This document shows positions 12,278 to 57,525 of a stretch of DNA of 64,000 nucleotides, in pieces. The stretch's first letter is position 1. Each line of letters begins with the position of its first letter. A program made the translations under genes and the position numbers. The DNA is from Deltaproteobacteria bacterium (GTDB lineage: Bacteria; Desulfobacterota; Desulfobulbia; Desulfobulbales; JAJRZW01), in assembly GCA_024275015.1 (NCBI GenBank), contig JAJRZW010000001.1, forward strand, positions 706 through 64,705, in the 5' to 3' direction. The notes under the pieces were generated by a model. That model searched no databases. It was not told the origin of the DNA and saw nothing but the letters and a program-made list of their open reading frames with translations.

Positions 12278-12622
12278 ATGTTTGGTATCGGTCTGCCCGA
12301 GTTAATTCTGATTATGGTCATTGCCCTGCTGGTGGTGGGGCCGGAGAAATTACCCGGCCTGGCGCGAACCATTGCCGGCTATGTGGTGGAGTTGAAAAAG
12401 GCCGCCAATACCCTGAAACAGAGCCTGAACGACGAAGAAGATCAGCGCCCCTGGGAAGGAACGCCGCGGGACTTTACCCTGCCGGAAGGGTTCTCTGCCG
12501 CGACTGGAATCGTGCCGGAACCGGAACCGGAACCGGAGAACGTGGACGCGCAGCAGGCGGCCCCTGCTGATACCGTCCCCGAATCCGGCCACGACCCTGA
12601 GGTCGAAGAAACCGATGGCTGA
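12278..12622 (+). CDS. tatA: twin-arginine translocase TatA/TatB-family subunit
   Basis: MFGIGLPELILIMVIALLVVGPEKLP is a canonical TatA/B N-terminus. Long acidic, Pro-rich tail. ATG 12278 preferred over GTG 12269. Confidence 0.85.
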   Translation: MFGIGLPELILIMVIALLVVGPEKLPGLARTIAGYVVELKKAANTLKQSLNDEEDQRPWEGTPRDFTLPEGFSAATGIVPEPEPEPENVDAQQAAPADTVPESGHDPEVEETDG

Positions 12623-13337
12623 TAATGGCCTGCTTTCGGAATTATTTATCCATCATCTTCGGGAGCTGCGGCGGCGGATTGGCTTTTCTCTCCTGGCGGT
12701 GGTGGTTGCCGCCGGGGTGGTCTATCCCCTGCGGTTGCCGATCTCCCGTTTTCTCTGCCGCCCCCTGGCGCTGCGGATGCCTGATTTCAACGGGCTGGTT
12801 TATACCAGTCTCCCCGAGGCCTTTGTCGCTTATATTAAATTAGCGGCGGTTCTGGGGCTGCTTATCGCGTCCCCGGTGCTGCTTTTCAACCTCTGGCGTT
12901 TTGTTTCCCCGGGGCTGAAGCCGGAGGAGCGGCGGGCCGGACGGATGGTGGTCCTGACCGGGAGCCTGCTATTCTTTTCCGGGGTCGCTTTTTATTATCT
13001 CGTCGCCCTGCCGCGGATGCTGGCCTTTTTCCTCTGGTTTGAAGGAGGGCGTTTTGAGCCGGTGCTGAAACTCGGCAGCTATCTTGGTTTTGTCGCCCGG
13101 GGCGGCCTGGTATTCGGCCTTGCCTTTGAGATCCCGTTTCTGGTGGCGGCGGCGATCCGGATCGGGGCGGTGCGCAAGGACTATTTTCGTAAAAAACGAT
13201 TGTCATTCTATTTCGCCCTCGCGGTCATCGCTTTTCTTCTTGCCGGCGGCGACGTGGTTGCCACTGTTTTTCTCATGATTCCCCTGGCCGGACTGCAGGA
13301 ACTCGGGGTTCTCTTTGCCGGTAATCCGGCAGACTGA
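12615..13337 (+). CDS. tatC: twin-arginine translocase subunit TatC
   Basis: 240 aa polytopic protein with TatC-like HLRELRRR and a six-TM pattern. Overlaps the tatA stop. Confidence 0.9.
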   Translation: MADNGLLSELFIHHLRELRRRIGFSLLAVVVAAGVVYPLRLPISRFLCRPLALRMPDFNGLVYTSLPEAFVAYIKLAAVLGLLIASPVLLFNLWRFVSPGLKPEERRAGRMVVLTGSLLFFSGVAFYYLVALPRMLAFFLWFEGGRFEPVLKLGSYLGFVARGGLVFGLAFEIPFLVAAAIRIGAVRKDYFRKKRLSFYFALAVIAFLLAGGDVVATVFLMIPLAGLQELGVLFAGNPAD

Positions 13338-23438: not shown

Positions 23439-24838
23439 TGCATATCCTCCAGGTTGCGGCCGACAGCGAGGGAAAGTTCGGCTGTGGCTGTTCCCAGTTG
23501 CATTTGCGCCGTTGAAAGGGCGAGACGGTTGTTAAGCCAGGCGTCATCAGCCCGGGTGAGGGCGGTAAAGCTGATACTCCCGGCCTCGAGACCGCGGCGG
23601 GCGACGGCAAGGGCGGCCCGGGACAGGGGGACGACGTGTTCTTTAAGCAGTTTAATCCGCCGCCGGTGACGGTCGGCTGTATCCCAGGCGTCGCGGGCTG
23701 TGCCCCGGGCCCGGTGTTTTGCGGCCTTGACTTTTTCATCGGCCGCGTTTACCGCGAGGCGCAGACGTTCAAGGTAAAAGAGGTTGGCGCCCTTGAATCC
23801 GTCCGTTATCCGTCCGGTGGCGGTCATTTTTTTATCCGTGAACCTGCCGCTGATTTCGCCGCCCATACGTCGCGACAGACCGGCGCTGAAGTCGGGAACG
23901 GCCATGAAACGGCCGAGATCGTACATGGTCGCCAGCGTCAGACGGCGGTTTTTTGCCAGCCGCAGGTCAAGGTTTGTCTGTTCGGCCGCGGCGATCATCG
24001 CCTTTGGGTCTGGCGGCGTCGGCGTTGTCGCCGGGGGGATGAAGGTGAAATGGTCAATGGGGGCAGCGCAGAGTTCGAAGAGGTCGCGGCGCAGGGTCTT
24101 TTCCTCTTCTTCAAGATCGCGGAGCCGGGTGGTGAGTTTTTGTTTTTTTATCCGGATGGCGATCACCTGTCCATAGGGGGTCTTGCCGCTGCTATAGCGC
24201 GTCATGGCGACCTTTTCGAGATCACGGAAAAGTTTAAGACTTTTGCCGGTGAGGCCTTGGGCGGTCTGGTTATGGATCAGGCGGAAATAGAGTTTCCGGC
24301 CCCGGGTTATGGCCCGGGCAATGGTCTTTTCCCTCGCGATTCGGGCCTGTTCCACCTCAAGGGCGGCAAGGCGGCTGCGCAGGCTCGCTGATTGCGGCAG
24401 GGCAAGGTCGGTGGTGGCCATTTTTACCGGCCCGACCCCGGGGGCAAGCCCGGCAGTGAAGGATTGATAGGTGGAAAGGAGGTCGTTGATCGCCTGCTCC
24501 TGGCCGTATGTCTCGATCCTGGCCGCCACCGTGGCCCGGGTGCTTTTAATCGCGGGGTTATGTCTCAGGATGAGGGCGCTTAAACGGTTGAGTTCGTTGT
24601 TGCGGTCAAGTCCGGCCTGATCGATGAACGGGATGGTGGTATCGGCGGCGACAGTGATTTTCGCCGTTTCCAGGGATGGGGCCGCCGGGCGTTCTGTCTG
24701 GGGCATGGTGGCCGGTTCGAGGCCTGCCGCGGCCTCGGGCGGTGCGGCAAAAAGCCGCTTTTGTTCGCCGTAGGTCGCGGCGCAGGCGGGGATGGTGGCG
24801 ACGATGGCCAGAAGCATCAAGGTGGTCCGGATGGTCAT
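23435..24838 (-). CDS. TolC-family outer-membrane efflux protein (second of a tandem pair)
   Basis: 467 aa with a signal peptide and coiled-coil-rich TolC/OEP-like repeats. Overlaps both neighbours by 4 nt. Confidence 0.8.
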   Translation of the reverse strand: MTIRTTLMLLAIVATIPACAATYGEQKRLFAAPPEAAAGLEPATMPQTERPAAPSLETAKITVAADTTIPFIDQAGLDRNNELNRLSALILRHNPAIKSTRATVAARIETYGQEQAINDLLSTYQSFTAGLAPGVGPVKMATTDLALPQSASLRSRLAALEVEQARIAREKTIARAITRGRKLYFRLIHNQTAQGLTGKSLKLFRDLEKVAMTRYSSGKTPYGQVIAIRIKKQKLTTRLRDLEEEEKTLRRDLFELCAAPIDHFTFIPPATTPTPPDPKAMIAAAEQTNLDLRLAKNRRLTLATMYDLGRFMAVPDFSAGLSRRMGGEISGRFTDKKMTATGRITDGFKGANLFYLERLRLAVNAADEKVKAAKHRARGTARDAWDTADRHRRRIKLLKEHVVPLSRAALAVARRGLEAGSISFTALTRADDAWLNNRLALSTAQMQLGTATAELSLAVGRNLEDMQ

Positions 24839-52048: not shown

Positions 52049-52379
52049 CATGCTGGAAGTAACTGATCTGGCGATCGAGAACATCAAGACCTATATGGAG
52101 GAGAACAGCCTTGATTCCGCTCTAAGGGTTGCCCTTATGCAGGGTGGCTGATCGGGGCCCTCCCTGGGATTGGCTCTGGATGAGCCAAAAGACACTGATT
52201 TTCGCCTGGATAAAGACGCCGTTACCTTTGTCGTTGATAACGATTTGCTTGGCAATTGTGGCGGTATCAAGGTCGATTTTATTGACTCCGGAATGCGTTC
52301 CGGTTTTTCTGTGACCTCAACCAATCCCATTGCCGACGGTGGCAGTGGTTGTGGCAGTTGCGGCAGCAGCTGCGGTTAA
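52049..52379 (+). CDS. HesB/IscA-like selenoprotein (in-frame UGA; apparent 1-nt frameshift near the 5' end)
   Basis: GGAGG RBS, then ATG 52049 encoding MLEVTDLAIE. After the A-run at 52079-81 the family-like sequence continues in the +1 frame: NIKTYMEENSLDSALRVALMQGG-TGA(52149-51)-SGPSLGLALDEPKD...GSGCGSCGSSCG. Confidence 0.6.
52170..52188 (+). promoter_or_regulatory. candidate bacterial SECIS hairpin
   Basis: UUGGCUC-UGGAU-GAGCCAA: a 7-bp stem whose 5-nt apical loop contains GG, starting 19 nt after the UGA. Confidence 0.5.
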
Positions 52380-52451: not shown

Positions 52452-52497
52452 CGTTCACCAGGGCCAGGCGCAGATCTGCGCCTGGCCCTGGTGAACG
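52452..52497. repeat. 46-bp perfect palindrome
   Basis: CGTTCACCAGGGCCAGGCGCAGATCTGCGCCTGGCCCTGGTGAACG with no mismatch, centred on AGATCT. Confidence 0.9.
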
Positions 52498-52568
52498 GTA
52501 TTTCTTTGCCGCTGAGTTTGAAATTGCGTTCATCCTGCTTGAATTTTTCGCCCGGCTTCATTTAAGCT

Positions 52569-54056
52569 ATGGCCATGGCAGGTAAATCCGTCACAGCTAT
52601 TCTCGTTATTTTTTTTCTCTTCCCTCCGCTTGCGGCAATCGCCGGTGCTTCCGGGGTTCGGGAGGCGGTATGGGCCGGGGCCTTTTATCCTGCCGATTAC
52701 AGGGAACTGAAGAGGGAGGTGGCCGGGGATATCGCCTACGGGGCTGCGCGGCTGCGCCGGAGGGGGGTGTCGGCAAGGCCCCTGATTATCATTATTCCCC
52801 ATGCCGGTTACCGTTATTCCGGCCGCATTGCCGGGGTCGCCGCCGCCGCGGTTGCCCGGCGCGGATATAAACGGGTTATCATTATCGCCCCCGACCACCG
52901 GGTCGGTTTCTCCGGGGTGGCGACCATGGCCCGGGGCGCCTACCGCACTCCCCTGGGGCTGGTTTCCGTTGATCCGGAGGCGGCGGTATTGATGTCCCGG
53001 GGGAGATTATTTCATCGGGTTGCCGCTTCGGACAACAGCGAGCACGCGGTTGAGGTGGTTCTGCCCTTTCTCCAGTCGGCCCTGGGCGGATTTTCCCTGA
53101 TCCCTCTGGTTTCCTCCAGGGTTGCGCCGCAGACGCTGGCGGACGCCGTTGTTCCCCTCCTTTCCCCGGAAACCCTGCTGGTTATTTCGAGTGATTTTTC
53201 CCATTATCTCCCCTATGACCGGGCCGTGGCCCATGACCAGGCCACCATAAGGGCCATCCTTAACCTTGATCTGGACGTTTTTCAGGGGATCAAAAATAGT
53301 GCCTGCGGCCGTACCGGGATCGCGGCGGCGATAATCGTCGCCCGGCGACTCGGTCTTGCTCCGGAACTTCTGGCCCGGGCCAACAGCGGTGATGCCACCG
53401 CCGACCGCGGCCGGGTGGTGGGTTACGTTGCCATGGGGTTTTATAAAAATGAAAAAACAGCGACGGAGAGAAAAATGCCGGAACTCAGTAACGAACAGGG
53501 CCGGGCGCTGTTGCTTCTGGCGCGGCGTACTATCCTGAAAAAGTTCGGCCGGGATCCCGGCGTCGAAGACGGGCCGGAGGCCGTCGTCCTCGACGATCCG
53601 GTTTTTTCAACCCGGCGGGGGGTATTTGTCACCCTTAACCGCCGCGGGCGTCTGCGTGGATGTATCGGCAGCCTTGCCGGGGTTGAGAGTATTGTCGCGG
53701 GGGTGAGGAGAAACGCCGTTAATGCCGCCTTTAATGATCCACGTTTTAAACCCCTGAGCGCGGAGGAACTTGCGGATCTGGAGATCGAGGTCAGTATTCT
53801 CACCGAGGCTGAGCCGCTGGCCTTTAACGACAGCGACGAGCTGATAAGAAAATTGCGGCCCGGCATCGATGGGGTCATTATTCGCGACGGCATCCACAGC
53901 GCTACTTTTCTTCCCCAGGTGTGGGAGCAGATTCCGGTCCCGGCTGATTTTCTGACCCATCTCTGCCGCAAGGCCGGAATGGCGGGGAACCGCTGGCAGC
54001 GTCCCGGACTCACCGTCCTTGCTTATCAGGTGCAGTATTTTGCCGAGGGCGGATGA
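52569..54056 (+). CDS. AmmeMemoRadiSam system fusion protein: MEMO1-like (protein B) + AMMECR1 (protein A), with signal-like N-terminus
   Basis: N-terminal half has FYPADYRELK, IIIPHAGYRYSG and SEHAVEVVLPFLQ (MEMO). C-terminal half has GVFVTLNRRGRLRGCIGS and ATFLPQVWEQ (AMMECR1). First 29 aa are hydrophobic, ending AIAGASG. Confidence 0.85.
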   Translation: MAMAGKSVTAILVIFFLFPPLAAIAGASGVREAVWAGAFYPADYRELKREVAGDIAYGAARLRRRGVSARPLIIIIPHAGYRYSGRIAGVAAAAVARRGYKRVIIIAPDHRVGFSGVATMARGAYRTPLGLVSVDPEAAVLMSRGRLFHRVAASDNSEHAVEVVLPFLQSALGGFSLIPLVSSRVAPQTLADAVVPLLSPETLLVISSDFSHYLPYDRAVAHDQATIRAILNLDLDVFQGIKNSACGRTGIAAAIIVARRLGLAPELLARANSGDATADRGRVVGYVAMGFYKNEKTATERKMPELSNEQGRALLLLARRTILKKFGRDPGVEDGPEAVVLDDPVFSTRRGVFVTLNRRGRLRGCIGSLAGVESIVAGVRRNAVNAAFNDPRFKPLSAEELADLEIEVSILTEAEPLAFNDSDELIRKLRPGIDGVIIRDGIHSATFLPQVWEQIPVPADFLTHLCRKAGMAGNRWQRPGLTVLAYQVQYFAEGG

Positions 54057-56136
54057 GGCGCTGCGGGTAAAGCGGCTCCTGTTCGCCGCCGGTGCCGCCA
54101 CCGTATTGGTGCAGTTGGTGATGGTGCGGGAGCTTTTGGTCCGTTTCAGTGGCAATGAATTCGTCATCGCGGTCATCTTTTTTATCTGGCTTGTCAGTGG
54201 CGCTATCGGTGCCTTTGCCGCCCCCCGCCTTGGCCGTTTTTTTTCCGCCACCGGTGAGCGTTTATGGTGGCTTGCCCTCCTGCTTGTTATTCTGCCGCAG
54301 CTTATGGTCGGCGCTGTTGCCATCCTCGCCCCCATCCTGACCCTGCCCGGGGTATCAGCGGGATTTTACCCCACCCTGTTTTTTGTTATTCTCCTTATCA
54401 GTCCCTATTGTTTTGCCATCGGGGTTTTTTTCCCCTGGGCCCTTGCCCGGTACGCCCCGCGCGTGAGCGGCAGGGGCGCGGCCCGGATCTATCTTGCCGA
54501 TACCGGCGGCGGGGTAATCGCCTCTTTGCTGTTTGTCCTGTTGCTGGTACGTTTTTTTTCTTCATTCACGGTGGTGGTCGGGGGGGGCTTTGTTTTTTTT
54601 CTGGCGGCCCTGCCTTTTATGCCGCAACATAGGCGTGCCCGGGCGGCAGGCCTGTTTTTCCTCTGTCTGGCGATTGCGGCGGCGGCATTACTGCGTTTTT
54701 TTGCTCCATCTCCCTATAATGGCAGGATCGTAAGCGCGCGCGATTCCCGTTTCGGCCGGATCGAGGTGGTGAAAAAGGCGGAACAGAGCACGGTGATGAC
54801 AAACGGCCGGCCGGTATTCATCAGTCAGACGCCGGCCCTGGCCGAGGAATTGGTGCATTACCCCGCCTCCCTGGTTGCCTCGCCCCGGCGGATGTTGTTT
54901 ATCGGCGCGGTGGCGGGTATTTTTGTCGAGGCGGCGAAATACCGTCCCCGGACCCTTGATTATCTTGAGATTGATCCGGACTTAAGCCGCGTTCTCCTGG
55001 CCGGGGGGCTGGTTGTTCCGGTATCCGGCCTGAGGGTGATTAACCGTGATCCGCGTCTTTTCCTGGCCGGGAGCGGGGATAAATACGATATGATCGTCAT
55101 CGCCCGCGGTGAGCCTGAGACCTTTGGCGATAACCGTCTTTTCACCCGGGAGTTCATGGCCCTGGTCCGAGCTCACCTCGCTCCCGGCGGGGTCTTTGCC
55201 TTCGGGGTTGACGGTTTTGAAAATTACCTTGGCCCCGCGTCCCGGCAGCGGTTTGCCTGTTATTATGCCACCATGAGATCGGTTTTTCCCGAGGTAGCGA
55301 TGATCCCAGGCCGGAAAACGATTTTTATCGGTTCATCCCGTCGGCCGCGGCTGGACATCCCCGGGATTCTCCGATCCCGGGGGATCGTTACCAGTTATCT
55401 GGCGCCGTTTTTCCGGGGTGAGGTTACTCCGGAGCGTCTGCGGTACCTTGAGGACGCGGTCCGGGTCCGGAACGCGTCGCTGAATCTTGATCTGCACCCC
55501 GCCATTGTCCGCATGGTCCTTGATCACTGGTTTGAAAGGTTTGCCGGCTCGCCTTTCTGGTTTGCGGTTCCGGTCTGCGTGTTTTTTCTCTTGCTTCTCC
55601 TCCGCGCCTCTCCCGGAGAGTATACCCTGCTCACCGCCGGTTTTACCTCGATGGCGGTGGAGACTGTGGCGGTGTTCGCCTTTGCCGTTTTTCATGGTTA
55701 TATTTTTGAACAAATCGGTATTTTGATCTCCCTTGCCCTGGCCGGGATTTTTGTCGGCCTCCGCTTTGGCGCCGGAGTCCGGGATAAAGAGAGCCGGGGG
55801 GTGATCCTGGCCGCTGACGCGGCGATTATCGTCCTTGCCCTTTTATGGGCCGTAAGCCTTGGCCGTTTTAATGACGGGATAACCACGGTTATTATTCTGT
55901 TTATGACTTTTACCCTTTCACTTGCCTCCGGGTTGCAGTTCGGCCCGGCAATAAATCTCAGCCCTGACGGGCCGAATGGGGCGGCCGGGGCCTTTGGCGC
56001 CGATCTCGCCGGGGCCGGGGCCGGGGTGCTTCTCATCGCCCTTGTGATCCTGCCCGGTTATGGCCTGGCGGCGGCGGTGGCGTCAATCGCGATAATAAAG
56101 GCCACAGGTATGGTCCGGGTTTTTTCCGCGGGGTGA
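54019..56136 (+). CDS. polytopic membrane protein with central spermidine-synthase-like (AdoMet-dependent) domain
   Basis: 705 aa with many TM segments at both ends. The middle region (FGRIEVVKK...MLFIGAVAGI...YLEIDPDL...YDMIVIA...FTREF) resembles aminopropyltransferases. Overlaps the upstream gene; start uncertain (54019 or 54040). Confidence 0.72.
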   Translation: MLIRCSILPRADEALRVKRLLFAAGAATVLVQLVMVRELLVRFSGNEFVIAVIFFIWLVSGAIGAFAAPRLGRFFSATGERLWWLALLLVILPQLMVGAVAILAPILTLPGVSAGFYPTLFFVILLISPYCFAIGVFFPWALARYAPRVSGRGAARIYLADTGGGVIASLLFVLLLVRFFSSFTVVVGGGFVFFLAALPFMPQHRRARAAGLFFLCLAIAAAALLRFFAPSPYNGRIVSARDSRFGRIEVVKKAEQSTVMTNGRPVFISQTPALAEELVHYPASLVASPRRMLFIGAVAGIFVEAAKYRPRTLDYLEIDPDLSRVLLAGGLVVPVSGLRVINRDPRLFLAGSGDKYDMIVIARGEPETFGDNRLFTREFMALVRAHLAPGGVFAFGVDGFENYLGPASRQRFACYYATMRSVFPEVAMIPGRKTIFIGSSRRPRLDIPGILRSRGIVTSYLAPFFRGEVTPERLRYLEDAVRVRNASLNLDLHPAIVRMVLDHWFERFAGSPFWFAVPVCVFFLLLLLRASPGEYTLLTAGFTSMAVETVAVFAFAVFHGYIFEQIGILISLALAGIFVGLRFGAGVRDKESRGVILAADAAIIVLALLWAVSLGRFNDGITTVIILFMTFTLSLASGLQFGPAINLSPDGPNGAAGAFGADLAGAGAGVLLIALVILPGYGLAAAVASIAIIKATGMVRVFSAG

Positions 56137-56139
56137 AAA

Positions 56140-57318
56140 ATGGCTGTTGACCGGCGCAGGTTCATAAAGGGCTCAGCCCTCATCGTCTCGTCCTTGGCCC
56201 TTGGCGGCGGGGTAATCTGGCTTGGCAATAACCGCGGTCGTTTCAGTCGGTTGAGCGATATCACCGGCCATGTTTTTCGCGGTCAGGCCCCGGATACCCC
56301 CGGCCCTTTCGCCCGCGAGGCGATGTTTTATGAAAAGACACCCGGTGCCACGGTGGTCTGCGCTCATTGCCGTCATGCCTGCCGCCTTGCTGCCGGTGAC
56401 ATGGGCCTCTGTCGCAATCGCGCCAATATAGGCGGGGTTCTCTATTCCCTGGCGTACGGTAACCCCTGTTCTTTCAACCTTGATCCGGTGGAGAAAAAGC
56501 CCCTGTTTCATTATCGTCCCGGGACCAGCGCTTTTTCCATCGCCACTGCCGGCTGTAATTTTCGCTGCCTCAACTGTCAGAACTGGGAAATATCACAGAA
56601 GCGGCCCGACGAGGTACGGCATCGGGAGATGTTCCCGGCGGCGGTGGTTGAAGAGGCGCGGAAGAGGGGGGCGGCGTCCATCGCCTATACCTATTCCGAG
56701 CCGGCGACCTTCTACGAGTATATGCTTGACACCGCCGCTCTGGCAAAAGAACGGGGGATCGGTGGTCTGTTCATCTCCAACGGCTATCTTAACCCTGAAC
56801 CCCTTGTCGGTCTCTGCCGGGTCATTACCGCCGCCAATATCAATCTCAAGGCCTTTGACGAGACCACCTACCGCAGCCTTGACGGCGGTGGGCTTGCCCC
56901 GGTGCTTGAGACCCTCAGGATTATCCACCGTGAAGGGGTGCATCTTGAGGTTACCAGCCTGGTGATTCCCGGTTATACCGACAAGGTTGAAGACCTGAAA
57001 AGGATGTGCGCCTGGATTCTCGCCAACCTCGGCCCTGACGTGCCGCTGCATTTTCTCCGTTTCTTTCCCCGTTATCGTCTTGACCGTCTTGAGGCTACCC
57101 CGGTTTCCACCATCGAGTCATTCCGCGAAATCGCCATGGCCCAGGGTATTCATTACGCCTATGTCGGTAATGCGGGGATCACTCCCGGGGCCGATACCTT
57201 CTGCCATAATTGCGGCAAATTGCTGATTGAGAGAAGGGGGTACCTCCTGCCGGTGATGGACGTCATTGCCGGCCACTGCAAATACTGCCGCGCCGTGATT
57301 CCCGGGTTATGGGGATGA
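56140..57318 (+). CDS. AmmeMemoRadiSam system radical SAM enzyme with N-terminal twin-arginine motif
   Basis: MAVDRRRFIKGSALIVSSLALGGG, then an auxiliary Cys cluster (CAHCRHAC...LC), then CNFRCLNCQNW (CxxxCxxC). Starts 4 nt after the upstream stop. Confidence 0.85.
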   Translation: MAVDRRRFIKGSALIVSSLALGGGVIWLGNNRGRFSRLSDITGHVFRGQAPDTPGPFAREAMFYEKTPGATVVCAHCRHACRLAAGDMGLCRNRANIGGVLYSLAYGNPCSFNLDPVEKKPLFHYRPGTSAFSIATAGCNFRCLNCQNWEISQKRPDEVRHREMFPAAVVEEARKRGAASIAYTYSEPATFYEYMLDTAALAKERGIGGLFISNGYLNPEPLVGLCRVITAANINLKAFDETTYRSLDGGGLAPVLETLRIIHREGVHLEVTSLVIPGYTDKVEDLKRMCAWILANLGPDVPLHFLRFFPRYRLDRLEATPVSTIESFREIAMAQGIHYAYVGNAGITPGADTFCHNCGKLLIERRGYLLPVMDVIAGHCKYCRAVIPGLWG

Positions 57319-57325
57319 GGGTAAA

Positions 57326-57367
57326 GGCCGGCTTTGGCTCCCGGGAGCAGGCGCCGGCTTTTTTTCT
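57326..57367 (+). terminator. rho-independent terminator ending the AmmeMemoRadiSam operon
   Basis: GCCGGC...GCTCCCGGGAGC...GCCGGC stem followed by T9. Confidence 0.7.
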
Positions 57368-57437: not shown

Positions 57438-57525
57438 GCCCGGGTGGCGGAACTGGTAGACGCAAGGGACTTAAAATCCCTCGGAGTTCATCTCTGTGCG
57501 AGTTCGATTCTCGCCCCGGGCACCA
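57438..57525 (+). tRNA. tRNA-Leu (anticodon TAA)
   Basis: Acceptor GCCCGGG/CCCGGGC, anticodon stem-loop AGGGACTTAAAATCCCT, long variable arm, T-arm GCGAGTTCGATTCTCGC, encoded CCA. Confidence 0.9.

Follow-up and report, generated by a model that had tools for sequence, protein, structure and literature searches.

We hypothesize that three closely packed genes in the 64,000-nucleotide stretch of DNA analysed here (the window) form an operon for a conserved, periplasm-facing variant of the AmmeMemoRadiSam system, a variant of four modules in which a membrane protein would supply SAM or a substrate; judged from sequence and predicted structure, this is on balance the likely reading. The putatively exported four-module variant appears to be new, as no earlier description of an exported AmmeMemoRadiSam variant with a membrane partner was found in the searchable literature; the fusion of Memo with AMMECR1 itself was already known (Balaji & Aravind 2007, PMC2034487). 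The export of the parts and the envelope modification pathway that they would serve are predictions: signals were judged by motif rules and topology by the positive-inside rule, and both kinds of call are predictive.

Organization of the locus

According to the ORF listing, the three genes (g1, g2 and g3) lie close together in one direction on the + strand, at 52569-57318. The first, g1 (52569..54056, + strand), encodes a Memo-AMMECR1 fusion of 495 aa that joins AmmeMemoRadiSam protein B to protein A in a single chain; g2 (54040..56136, + strand) encodes a membrane protein of 698 aa with seven TM helices, a predicted periplasmic domain of the spermidine synthase (SpeE) fold, and seven further TM helices; and g3 (56140..57318, + strand) encodes the AmmeMemoRadiSam radical SAM (rSAM) enzyme, of 392 aa, with a predicted N-terminal Tat signal. 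The listing gives g2 as 54019/54040-56136 on the + strand, and the preliminary description had made it a protein of 705 aa; its start is most likely the TTG at 54040, not 54019, with the Shine-Dalgarno sequence AGGTG, and the resulting 698 aa are identical to database protein P0001. The reading frames had been described as overlapping or 4 nt apart: with the TTG start g1 and g2 do overlap, by 17 nt, and the spacer between the g2 stop and the ATG of g3 at 56140, which is preceded by the Shine-Dalgarno sequence GGGGTGA, is 3 nt long. A TAA (52563-52565) stands immediately 5' of the ATG of g1 at 52569, and no other in-frame start precedes the Memo domain, so that the hydrophobic N-terminus of g1 is unavoidable. 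As first proposed, a single intrinsic terminator ends the operon (57318..57367, + strand; hairpin of -25.2 kcal/mol, then U7), and a tRNA-Leu at 57438 lies 3' of it.

Conservation of the gene cluster

The membrane protein had been called an inserted element of the operon, a view that the comparison of loci overturns. In 75 of 79 species-level Desulfobacterota loci (clade 1) the gene immediately upstream of the rSAM gene is a g2 homologue, and a second clade of g2, about 28% identical (clade 2, whose named rSAM homologues are mostly from Terriglobia/Acidobacteriia), adjoins the rSAM and Memo-AMMECR1 genes in convergent order in 65 of 80 metagenome loci. The AmmeMemoRadiSam components are encoded together in the large majority of the 159 related loci, and the overlap of g1 with g2 recurs among them, in several cases with the window's exact 17 nt. 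No further conserved neighbour gene, and no other transporter, was found at the surveyed loci. Judged from gene order, g2 belongs regularly to this operon, which is widespread, and is not a local insertion; the system is kept together with its 14-helix membrane protein in two bacterial phyla. There are exceptions in both directions: loci L033 and L042 carry a Tat-type rSAM gene with neither g1 nor g2 within 10 kb, in L007 the Memo-AMMECR1 protein bears a signal but its rSAM partner apparently has none, and some members of the wider g2 family (1612 clusters at E<=1e-30), L008 for example, lack adjacent rSAM and AMMECR1 genes.

Domains and predicted export signals of the soluble components

The three AmmeMemoRadiSam domains recognized at first sight all score above the curated cut-offs of their family models. 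In g1, the Memo model TIGR04336 AmmeMemoSam_B covers residues 31-289 at 212.8 bits (cut-off 26) and the AMMECR1 model TIGR04335 AmmeMemoSam_A residues 313-491 at 189.1 bits (cut-off 99), in agreement with the MEMO1-like and AMMECR1 fusion originally seen in this 495-aa protein; the Pfam Memo and AMMECR1 models match as well, and the nearest solved structures are MEMO1 (3bcz/7kq8) and AMMECR1 homologues (1zq7/1vaj). The Memo metal-site residues (H78, D109-H110, H159, D209/H212, C246) and the AMMECR1 motif LRGC365IG are invariant in 51 g1 orthologues. Over residues 63-391, after the signal, g3 scores 327.7 bits with TIGR04337 (cut-off 220). Its rSAM cluster motif CNFRCLNC (C139, C143, C146; 56554..56577, + strand) was read from the sequence; the pattern C139-x3-C143-x2-C146 is invariant in the alignment of 59 g3 homologues, as are the additional cysteines C74, C77, C81, C91, C355, C358, C380 and C383. 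By these residue patterns Memo, AMMECR1 and the rSAM enzyme have each kept their predicted catalytic residues, and in its family matches, its clustered genes, its Memo metal site, its LRGCIG motif and its CX3CX2C motif the locus is like the canonical AmmeMemoRadiSam system. The closest characterized relatives of g3 are the PFL-activating enzyme and other glycyl-radical activases (3c8f/3cb8), which are cytoplasmic, and from which g3 differs by its eight extra invariant cysteines and its Tat signal: the nearest solved structure is the PFL-activating enzyme 3c8f (E 1e-4), and the PFLA, YjjW and NrdG models match g3 at E 1e-9 to 1e-13 with scores far under their cut-offs.

Three features set the window variant apart from the canonical system: the Sec signal, the Tat signal and the membrane-embedded protein as a fourth module. 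None of the family models or of the solved MEMO1 and AMMECR1 structures begins until after the signals seen in the window; in g1 the family model and the MEMO1 structures align from residue 31 on. The predicted Sec-type signal peptide of g1 occupies aa 1-29 (MAMAGKSVTAILVIFFLFPPLAAIAGASG; 52569..52655, + strand). The signal-peptide-like character of this N-terminus, noted from the start, extends to the orthologues: 50 of 51 have an N-terminal h-region (KD12, the mean Kyte-Doolittle hydropathy of the best 12-residue window, >=2.0), and in 48 of 51 a small-x-small site lies 5-16 residues ahead of the conserved AG.FYP motif, these cleavage-type sites directly preceding the Memo domain. AMMECR1-only variants and the clade-2 proteins likewise carry a Sec signal.

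The predicted twin-arginine signal of g3 (aa 1-32, MAVDRRRFIKGSALIVSSLALGGGVIWLGNNR; 56140..56235, + strand) consists of DRRRFIK followed by 21 uncharged residues, in keeping with the Tat consensus (S/T)RRxFLK, and TIGR01409 TAT_signal matches residues 3-23 at 17.6 bits (cut-off 16.7). The margin over this cut-off is slim, and TIGR01409 falls outside the top 25 families by number of orthologues matched. R5 and R6 are invariant in the g3 alignment. The RR motif is present in 117 of 120 close (clade-1) rSAM homologues, and RR with an uncharged stretch in 84 of 90 distant (clade-2) ones, so the twin-arginine motif and h-region initially read in the window protein hold across both groups; about 95% of the orthologues from the two clades have retained the canonical form, RRxF[LI]K and then >=13 uncharged residues. 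An A-x-A sequence follows the Tat motif in 82 of the 117 RR-bearing homologues, and the window protein's own signal has no strict A-x-A cleavage site. Among the 59 window ORFs with >=200 aa, 5 pass a simplified Tat rule, as against 114 of 120 rSAM homologues. Since the orthologues retain the signal segments, the true starts do not lie downstream of them, and the predicted export signals of g1 and g3 are conserved, not artefacts of start-codon choice. With the family models matching, the starts upheld and the membrane gene syntenic in two clades that are distant and arrange the genes differently, nothing that the preliminary description had named as speaking against its reading was observed.

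The tatA and tatC genes also reported for the window (12278..13337, + strand) represent the host's general Tat machinery and serve here as context: tatC (12615-13337) matches TIGR00945 at 144.6 bits (cut-off 132.7), and the TatA/B-like gene (12278-12622) matches its family models at 48.6-55.7 bits, each slightly under cut-off (tatB 55.7 vs 56.5).

The membrane protein and its SpeE-like domain

The TM helices anticipated at both ends of g2 are present in its AF2 model (pLDDT 91.6, pTM 0.91), which has 14 helices in two blocks of seven around a SpeE-fold domain. The N-terminal block (aa 4-221; 54049..54702, + strand) comprises helices 4-35, 41-65, 71-100, 109-138, 144-172, 175-193 and 198-221, with conserved polar residues Q25, R30, E31, N39, E40 and D154; the C-terminal block (aa 505-697; 55552..56130, + strand) comprises helices 505-522, 525-552, 558-578, 582-606, 612-632, 645-674 and 676-697, with conserved E541, G553, D655, P672, G675 and K687. 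The central domain (aa 229-500; 54724..55539, + strand) is predicted to be periplasmic because of the positive-inside rule: in clade 1 the loops on the N-terminal side average 15.4 K+R and those on the domain side 1.9, and in clade 2 the averages are 19.1 and 2.8.

The fold of this domain is that of SpeE (T. thermophilus 1uir/3anx) and of membrane-bound SpeE (PRK03612), including the N-terminal beta-hairpin part. Foldseek matches it to 1uir/3anx/6qmm (E ~1e-9; TM-score 0.66-0.71, normalized to target), the g2 family profile matches T. thermophilus SpeE (3anx) at E 1.5e-44, and g2 exceeds the cut-off of Pfam Spermine_synth (26.1 vs 22.9 bits). It stays far under the SpeE equivalog cut-offs (PRK03612, 61 vs 472; PRK00811, 30.6 vs 260; TIGR00417, 17.3 vs 249.55). 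The best database matches are named 'spermidine synthase' and 'fused MFS/spermidine synthase', the latter being the NCBI name of homologue P0004; the window protein nevertheless matches the model for this fused family, NF037959 MFS_SpdSyn, below its cut-off (29.6 vs 40), and over residues 132-427 only. Assignment of g2 to the MFS is weak: Foldseek aligns the whole chain to SV2A, GLUT3 and PfHT1 at no better than E 5e-5 to 2e-4, and MFS_1 matches 2 of 29 g2 relatives. The helices number 14 rather than 12. The position of the SpeE-like domain between TM7 and TM8 recalls SV2A, in which the TM7-TM8 loop carries a large luminal domain.

Like SpeE, g2 keeps the ribose- and adenine-binding acidic residues (E310/D312, D337-G-R) that hold adenosine; unlike SpeE, it lacks both the gatekeeper Asp for dcSAM in the GGGDG loop (window residues 289-293 are GAVAG) and the catalytic first Asp of D-x-x-D-P (A355 in the window protein), and its domain is predicted to lie in the periplasm between two seven-helix blocks. 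The gatekeeper position is G in 58 of 70 clade-1 and N in 71 of 78 clade-2 sequences, and the catalytic position is N in 41 and D in 15 of 70 (clade 1), or N in 69 and D in 9 of 78 (clade 2). The second acidic residue, E/D358-P359, is kept and aligns with the second Asp of DLTDP, the DxxDP motif of T. thermophilus SpeE, which we take to be the amine-binding position. N365, R366, T369, F372, N482, D484 and P487 are family-specific invariants. Thus the central aminopropyltransferase-like domain proposed earlier stands as to its fold, and aminopropyltransferase activity is unlikely, because the catalytic and gatekeeper Asp residues are missing. As the adenosine-holding residues are kept and the residues that exclude the SAM carboxylate and catalyse transfer are lost, the domain is more likely a module binding an adenosyl ligand (SAM) than a polyamine synthase. 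Loss of the gatekeeper Asp has a parallel in putrescine N-methyltransferase, an SpeE-derived enzyme that works with SAM, and about half of the g2 relatives also match generic SAM-methyltransferase models. The glycine-rich nucleotide loop is degenerate in the Desulfobacterota clade (IS..GG; GAVAG in the window protein), and SAM binding in that clade is therefore uncertain.

Proposed mechanism and alternatives

From gene content, signal conservation, two-clade synteny, predicted topology and residue pattern, all computed here, we infer the actual export and assembly of the parts, the supply of SAM by g2, a periplasmic reductant and the substrate. The Memo-AMMECR1 fusion would be released into the periplasm upon cleavage of its Sec-type signal peptide, and g3 would be loaded with Fe-S clusters in the cytoplasm and then exported folded via Tat. 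The MFS-like g2, with its 7+7 helices, would have its SpeE-fold domain within a loop outside the cytoplasm, where g1 and g3 would also be; it would take SAM (or the substrate) across the membrane and hand it to the exported rSAM enzyme, which together with Memo and AMMECR1 would modify a periplasmic or envelope substrate. Supply of SAM or substrate is probably the role of g2.

The difficulty lies in the chemistry of rSAM enzymes, which depends on SAM and on a low-potential electron; to our knowledge, all characterized ones act in the cytoplasm, and we know of no periplasmic source of SAM or low-potential electron donor and of no MFS transporter for SAM. Tat-exported redox enzymes (periplasmic hydrogenases, formate dehydrogenases, glucose-fructose oxidoreductase), with which g3 shares its signal type, receive their Fe-S clusters, molybdopterin or NADP while still in the cytoplasm and cross the membrane in folded form, but unlike g3 none requires a consumable cytoplasmic co-substrate after export. 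In its boldest form, our proposal is that this would be the first rSAM system to catalyse outside the cytoplasm, with the Tat-exported rSAM enzyme and Sec-exported Memo and AMMECR1 acting jointly on an envelope substrate, the MFS-like g2 exporting SAM and presenting it on its periplasmic, SpeE-derived domain, and electrons drawn from the redox network of low potential that anaerobes have in the periplasm; this full version is put forward tentatively, as a possibility.

A less likely alternative is that the parts are indeed extracytoplasmic and that g2, rather than supplying SAM, acts on the substrate by exporting, flipping or binding it, or else carries out a final SAM-dependent transfer, the rSAM enzyme being exported with tightly bound, regenerated SAM. 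The substrate would then be a polyamine, a different amine or a lipid that bears an amine. There are analogies for both features, since lysine 2,3-aminomutase regenerates SAM and glucose-fructose oxidoreductase carries NADP through Tat. The descent of the g2 domain from polyamine aminopropyltransferases, the retained acidic E/D358-P359 and the lack of any other transporter conserved at the locus all favour such substrate handling; the conserved acidic residues E31, E40, D154, E541 and D655 in membrane helices would fit a cationic substrate, and the family-specific invariants suggest a dedicated substrate site. Against it, the closest characterized relatives of g3 are PFL-activase-type enzymes, which use up SAM stoichiometrically, the Asp that would deprotonate the amine is missing, and the present data indicate no polyamine or lipid substrate.

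We regard as improbable that the N-terminal segments are membrane anchors or vestigial motifs, comparable to the remnant Tat motif of NarG, and that the system acts on the cytoplasmic face of the membrane with the SAM and reductant available there. The paradox of SAM and reductant would then disappear, and the missing strict A-x-A site in the window g3, its marginal TIGR01409 score and the possibly signal-less rSAM enzyme of L007 would be accommodated; yet a canonical Tat motif in about 95% of orthologues from two clades, with A-x-A in 82/117, would be hard to reconcile with this, the charges N-terminal to the h-region point the C-terminus outward, the cleavage-type sites of g1 orthologues lie right before the Memo domain, and the positive-inside rule independently puts the g2 domain outside (15-19 vs 2-3 K+R). 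That g2 has nothing to do with its neighbours and is a membrane-bound polyamine synthase located in the operon by chance is suggested by the names of its best database matches and by the large family with members such as L008 away from rSAM and AMMECR1 genes, but this is already disfavoured and very improbable given its place beside the AmmeMemoRadiSam genes in both clades (75/79 and 65/80 loci), which are distant and differ in gene order, the recurrent g1/g2 overlap, scores far under the SpeE equivalog cut-offs and the absence of both the catalytic and the gatekeeper Asp.

Implications

Under the favoured reading of a periplasm-facing four-module variant, the near-universal Tat signal, the partners predicted to be exported by Sec and the SAM-fold domain predicted to face the periplasm challenge the view that rSAM enzymes work only in the cytoplasm, and the finding predicts a trans-membrane SAM-delivery route that is as yet undescribed. 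The compact three-gene unit, which is found in cultured sulfate reducers, is suited to genetic and biochemical tests; Desulfosudis oleivorans and Desulfonema limicola are examples of cultured carriers.

Both AMMECR1 and Memo have been conserved all the way from archaea to humans, with ties to human disease, and guesses at their function have named the modification of RNA or of nucleotides. Burroughs et al., writing in JBC in 2019, reportedly predicted nucleotide-base or isoprenoid modification for the canonical system. RNA base modification has been predicted for it as well (PMC2034487). Both published predictions presuppose a cytoplasmic setting, unlike that predicted for the window variant. 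The putatively exported version speaks for a substrate other than nucleic acid, at any rate in this clade. If extracytoplasmic catalysis is true, Memo and AMMECR1 would act on a non-nucleic-acid substrate, such as a membrane lipid or isoprenoid, and efforts to learn what their human homologues do would take a new direction.

The operon and its surroundings

The operon (52569-57318) consists of three open reading frames read in one direction: g1, encoding a Memo-AMMECR1 fusion (52569-54056, + strand; 495 aa); g2, encoding a membrane protein; and g3, encoding a radical SAM (rSAM) enzyme (56140-57318, + strand; 392 aa). In profile searches, TIGR04336 (protein B, Memo) matches g1 residues 31-289 at 212.8 bits, TIGR04335 (protein A, AMMECR1) matches g1 residues 313-491 at 189.1 bits, and TIGR04337 matches g3 residues 63-391 at 327.7 bits, against a cut-off of 220. 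By these family models the locus belongs to the AmmeMemoRadiSam system, as the preliminary description had proposed; its gene content is clear, and the catalytic residues of Memo, AMMECR1 and the rSAM enzyme are intact.

The ATG of g1 (52569) is immediately preceded by a TAA (52563-52565), and no later in-frame start lies upstream of the Memo domain, so the hydrophobic N-terminus of this protein is unavoidable. The most likely start of g2 is TTG 54040, which has an AGGTG Shine-Dalgarno sequence and gives a 698-aa protein that is present in identical form in a public collection (P0001); g2 then overlaps g1 by 17 nt, and such overlaps recur among related loci, being exactly 17 nt in several. The ATG of g3 (56140), with a GGGGTGA Shine-Dalgarno sequence, lies 3 nt downstream of the g2 stop. 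A hairpin with a U7 run (57318-57367, + strand) closes the operon at its 3' end, and a tRNA-Leu gene (anticodon UAA; 57438-57525, + strand) follows about 70 nt past this terminator.

Directly upstream, in the window and in three related loci (L020, L021 and L045), is a gene for an IscA/HesB-family Fe-S cluster carrier (52050-52379, + strand), with an in-frame TGA (52149-52151) in a GG-[C/U]-SG motif. When the TGA is taken to encode Cys, the product reaches 136.9 bits on NF038090 (IscA_HesB_Se; cut-off 85); it is therefore a selenocysteine-containing HesB-like protein, whose gene an ORF caller would split. Between this gene and g1 lies a 46-nt palindrome with a 20-bp stem, followed by a T-rich tract (52452-52497, + strand). 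This strong hairpin terminates the upstream gene and leaves about 70 nt as promoter space for the operon, in which a search for a sigma-70-like site found none. Elsewhere in the window, two ARAGORN calls look doubtful: a tRNA-Ser(gct) within a TatA/B-like ORF (12512-12590, - strand) and a 'tRNA-His' with anticodon atg (24240-24326, + strand).

Predicted export signals

The twin-arginine signal model TIGR01409 matches g3 residues 3-23 at 17.6 bits (cut-off 16.7). Of the 120 best g3 homologues (Desulfobacterota; 54-76% identity), 117 have (S/T/D/N)RRxF(L/I) close to their N-terminus, 82 of these 117 with A-x-A after the h-region, and the three lacking the RR motif seem to be truncated gene calls. 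An alignment of 59 sequences shows no variation at R5 or R6, and a simplified Tat rule is passed by 114 of the 120 homologues versus 5 of 59 long ORFs of the window. An N-terminal h-region is likewise found in 50 of 51 Memo-AMMECR1 orthologues, with a small-x-small site right before the conserved Memo-domain start, R-x-P-x-x-AG-x-FYP, in 48. In clade 2, defined by distant g2 homologues from metagenomes, the rSAM enzymes have DRRxFLK and an h-region in 40 of 42 loci and 84 of 90 database proteins, and Memo-AMMECR1 bears a signal peptide as well.

The predicted Sec and Tat signals are thus conserved, and the starts do not lie downstream of them, which bears out the signals described earlier for the two proteins. 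Alignments to the family models, and to the solved structures of MEMO1 and AMMECR1, begin only past the signal segments, which indicates that the signals are additions to the canonical proteins. The presence of tatC in the window, also described previously, was confirmed. At one locus of clade-2-type gene order (L007:8123-10693, - strand; g2 homologue P0010) the rSAM ORF apparently begins without a Tat motif (MKMAGGDAQF...) while the adjoining Memo-AMMECR1 retains its signal peptide. Either the start codon is misassigned there or the topology is mixed.

Linkage of the membrane protein to AmmeMemoRadiSam genes

A scan with g3, using one genome per species, found at least 589 relatives. The best 80 loci are all labelled Desulfobacterota or deltaproteobacterial, except for a few MAGs whose labels are generic or doubtful; carriers include Desulfonema limicola, Desulfosudis oleivorans, Desulfosarcina and Desulfatitalea. 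Within this set of best relatives (clade 1), 75 of 79 loci have a g2 homologue of about 700 aa immediately before the rSAM gene, and in 63 loci a Memo-AMMECR1 gene precedes g2. In 13 loci (L058, L065, L068, L072, L073, L075, L077 and L081-L086), forming a Desulfobacterota sub-group, the place before g2 is taken by a gene for an AMMECR1-only protein of about 245 aa that bears a signal, with an N-terminal hydrophobic segment and a linker of about 40 aa. No Memo gene was found in the flanks of these 13 loci, where the system may do without Memo or have its gene at another site. Besides g2 and the AmmeMemoRadiSam genes, the clade-1 loci show no conserved neighbours. Two loci (L033:9980-11194 and L042:9992-11197) hold a Tat-bearing rSAM gene alone, with g1 and g2 absent within 10 kb and mobile-element-like genes among the neighbours.

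Independent retrieval recovered the same gene order around more divergent g2 homologues (33-47% identity). The clade-2 homologues (~28% identity) adjoin, in convergent orientation, an rSAM-then-Memo-AMMECR1 pair in 65 of 80 loci, the others being mostly short contigs; named rSAM homologues of this clade are mostly Terriglobia/Acidobacteriia. That the linkage is kept between two distant clades despite a changed gene order argues strongly that g2 and AmmeMemoRadiSam are functional partners. The tight linkage noted in the preliminary description therefore holds across genomes, but the protein it called inserted is a regular component.

Topology and fold of the membrane protein

The AlphaFold2 model of g2 is confident (pLDDT 91.6, pTM 0.91) and places seven helices at aa 4-221, a globular domain at 229-500 and seven more helices at 505-697. 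Mean loop K+R is 15.4 on the N-terminal side and 1.9 on the domain side in 71 Desulfobacterota orthologues, and 19.1 and 2.8 in 79 clade-2 sequences. By the positive-inside rule this asymmetry predicts cytoplasmic termini and a periplasmic globular domain, which would share its side of the membrane with both predicted-exported partners.

Similar motifs in the first helices of the two membrane blocks (QL..(I)RE.L..F.GNE...W at aa 20-60 and MG.E....F.FQ...GY.Y.Q.G at aa 535-575) suggest that the membrane domain was duplicated internally. Foldseek gives weak full-length matches of g2 to MFS transporters. One of these, SV2A, holds a large domain outside the cytoplasm in the loop from TM7 to TM8, where g2 has its SpeE-fold domain; the case for MFS membership is weak. 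The 7TM-SpeE-7TM family comprises 1612 clusters (50% identity) at E<=1e-30, and as a whole appears functionally unstudied. Some members are extended by about 130 aa N-terminally or about 300 aa C-terminally. For a member from Omnitrophota (L008), the sole AmmeMemoRadiSam gene nearby is a Memo gene lacking a signal, at a distance of 1.2 kb.

The globular domain has a spermidine-synthase fold (Foldseek matches 1uir, 3anx and 6qmm), and the family profile matches Thermus thermophilus SpeE at E 1.5e-44. Across the family, the positions that bind ribose (E310/D312) and adenine (D337-G-R) are nearly invariant. The Asp of GGGDG, which excludes the carboxylate of SAM, is G or N in the family and A in the g2 of the window; in DxxDP the first Asp, the catalytic one, is replaced mostly by N, and again by A in the window. 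Residues N365, R366, T369, F372, N482, D484 and P487 are invariant and family-specific, the glycine-rich loop is degenerate in the Desulfobacterota clade, and generic SAM-methyltransferase models also match half of the relatives. With the adenosine site kept, the gatekeeper and catalytic Asp lost and these methyltransferase matches, the domain looks like an adenosyl-ligand binder rather than a canonical aminopropyltransferase. The sole family match of g2 is Pfam Spermine_synth (26.1 bits), and it scores well under all SpeE equivalog cut-offs. We therefore advise against naming it a spermidine synthase: of the spermidine-synthase-like domain described earlier, the fold stands but aminopropyltransferase activity is unlikely.

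A proposed periplasm-facing system

The present variant differs from canonical AmmeMemoRadiSam in its predicted export signals and in having a fourth module, g2. The canonical system is reportedly predicted by Burroughs et al. 2019 to act in nucleotide-base or isoprenoid modification. In the literature open to full-text search, neither an exported AmmeMemoRadiSam nor a radical SAM enzyme of the periplasm nor a g2-type membrane partner was found to be mentioned. RNA base modification has been predicted for the canonical system (Balaji & Aravind 2007, PMC2034487); RNA would be a difficult substrate to square with an exported system.

We consider a four-module system facing the periplasm somewhat probable. 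The Fe-S-loaded rSAM enzyme would be exported folded via Tat and Memo-AMMECR1 via Sec, and both would assemble at the outer face of g2. Since no other membrane component is conserved, g2 may carry either SAM or the substrate across the membrane and present it, and the three enzymes would then modify a periplasmic or envelope molecule. Within such a system, SAM supply by g2 is a tentative suggestion, and a role of g2 as transporter or binder of the substrate is only slightly less likely. Plausible candidates for the electron source in these anaerobes are the networks that hydrogenase, formate dehydrogenase and cytochromes form in the periplasm.
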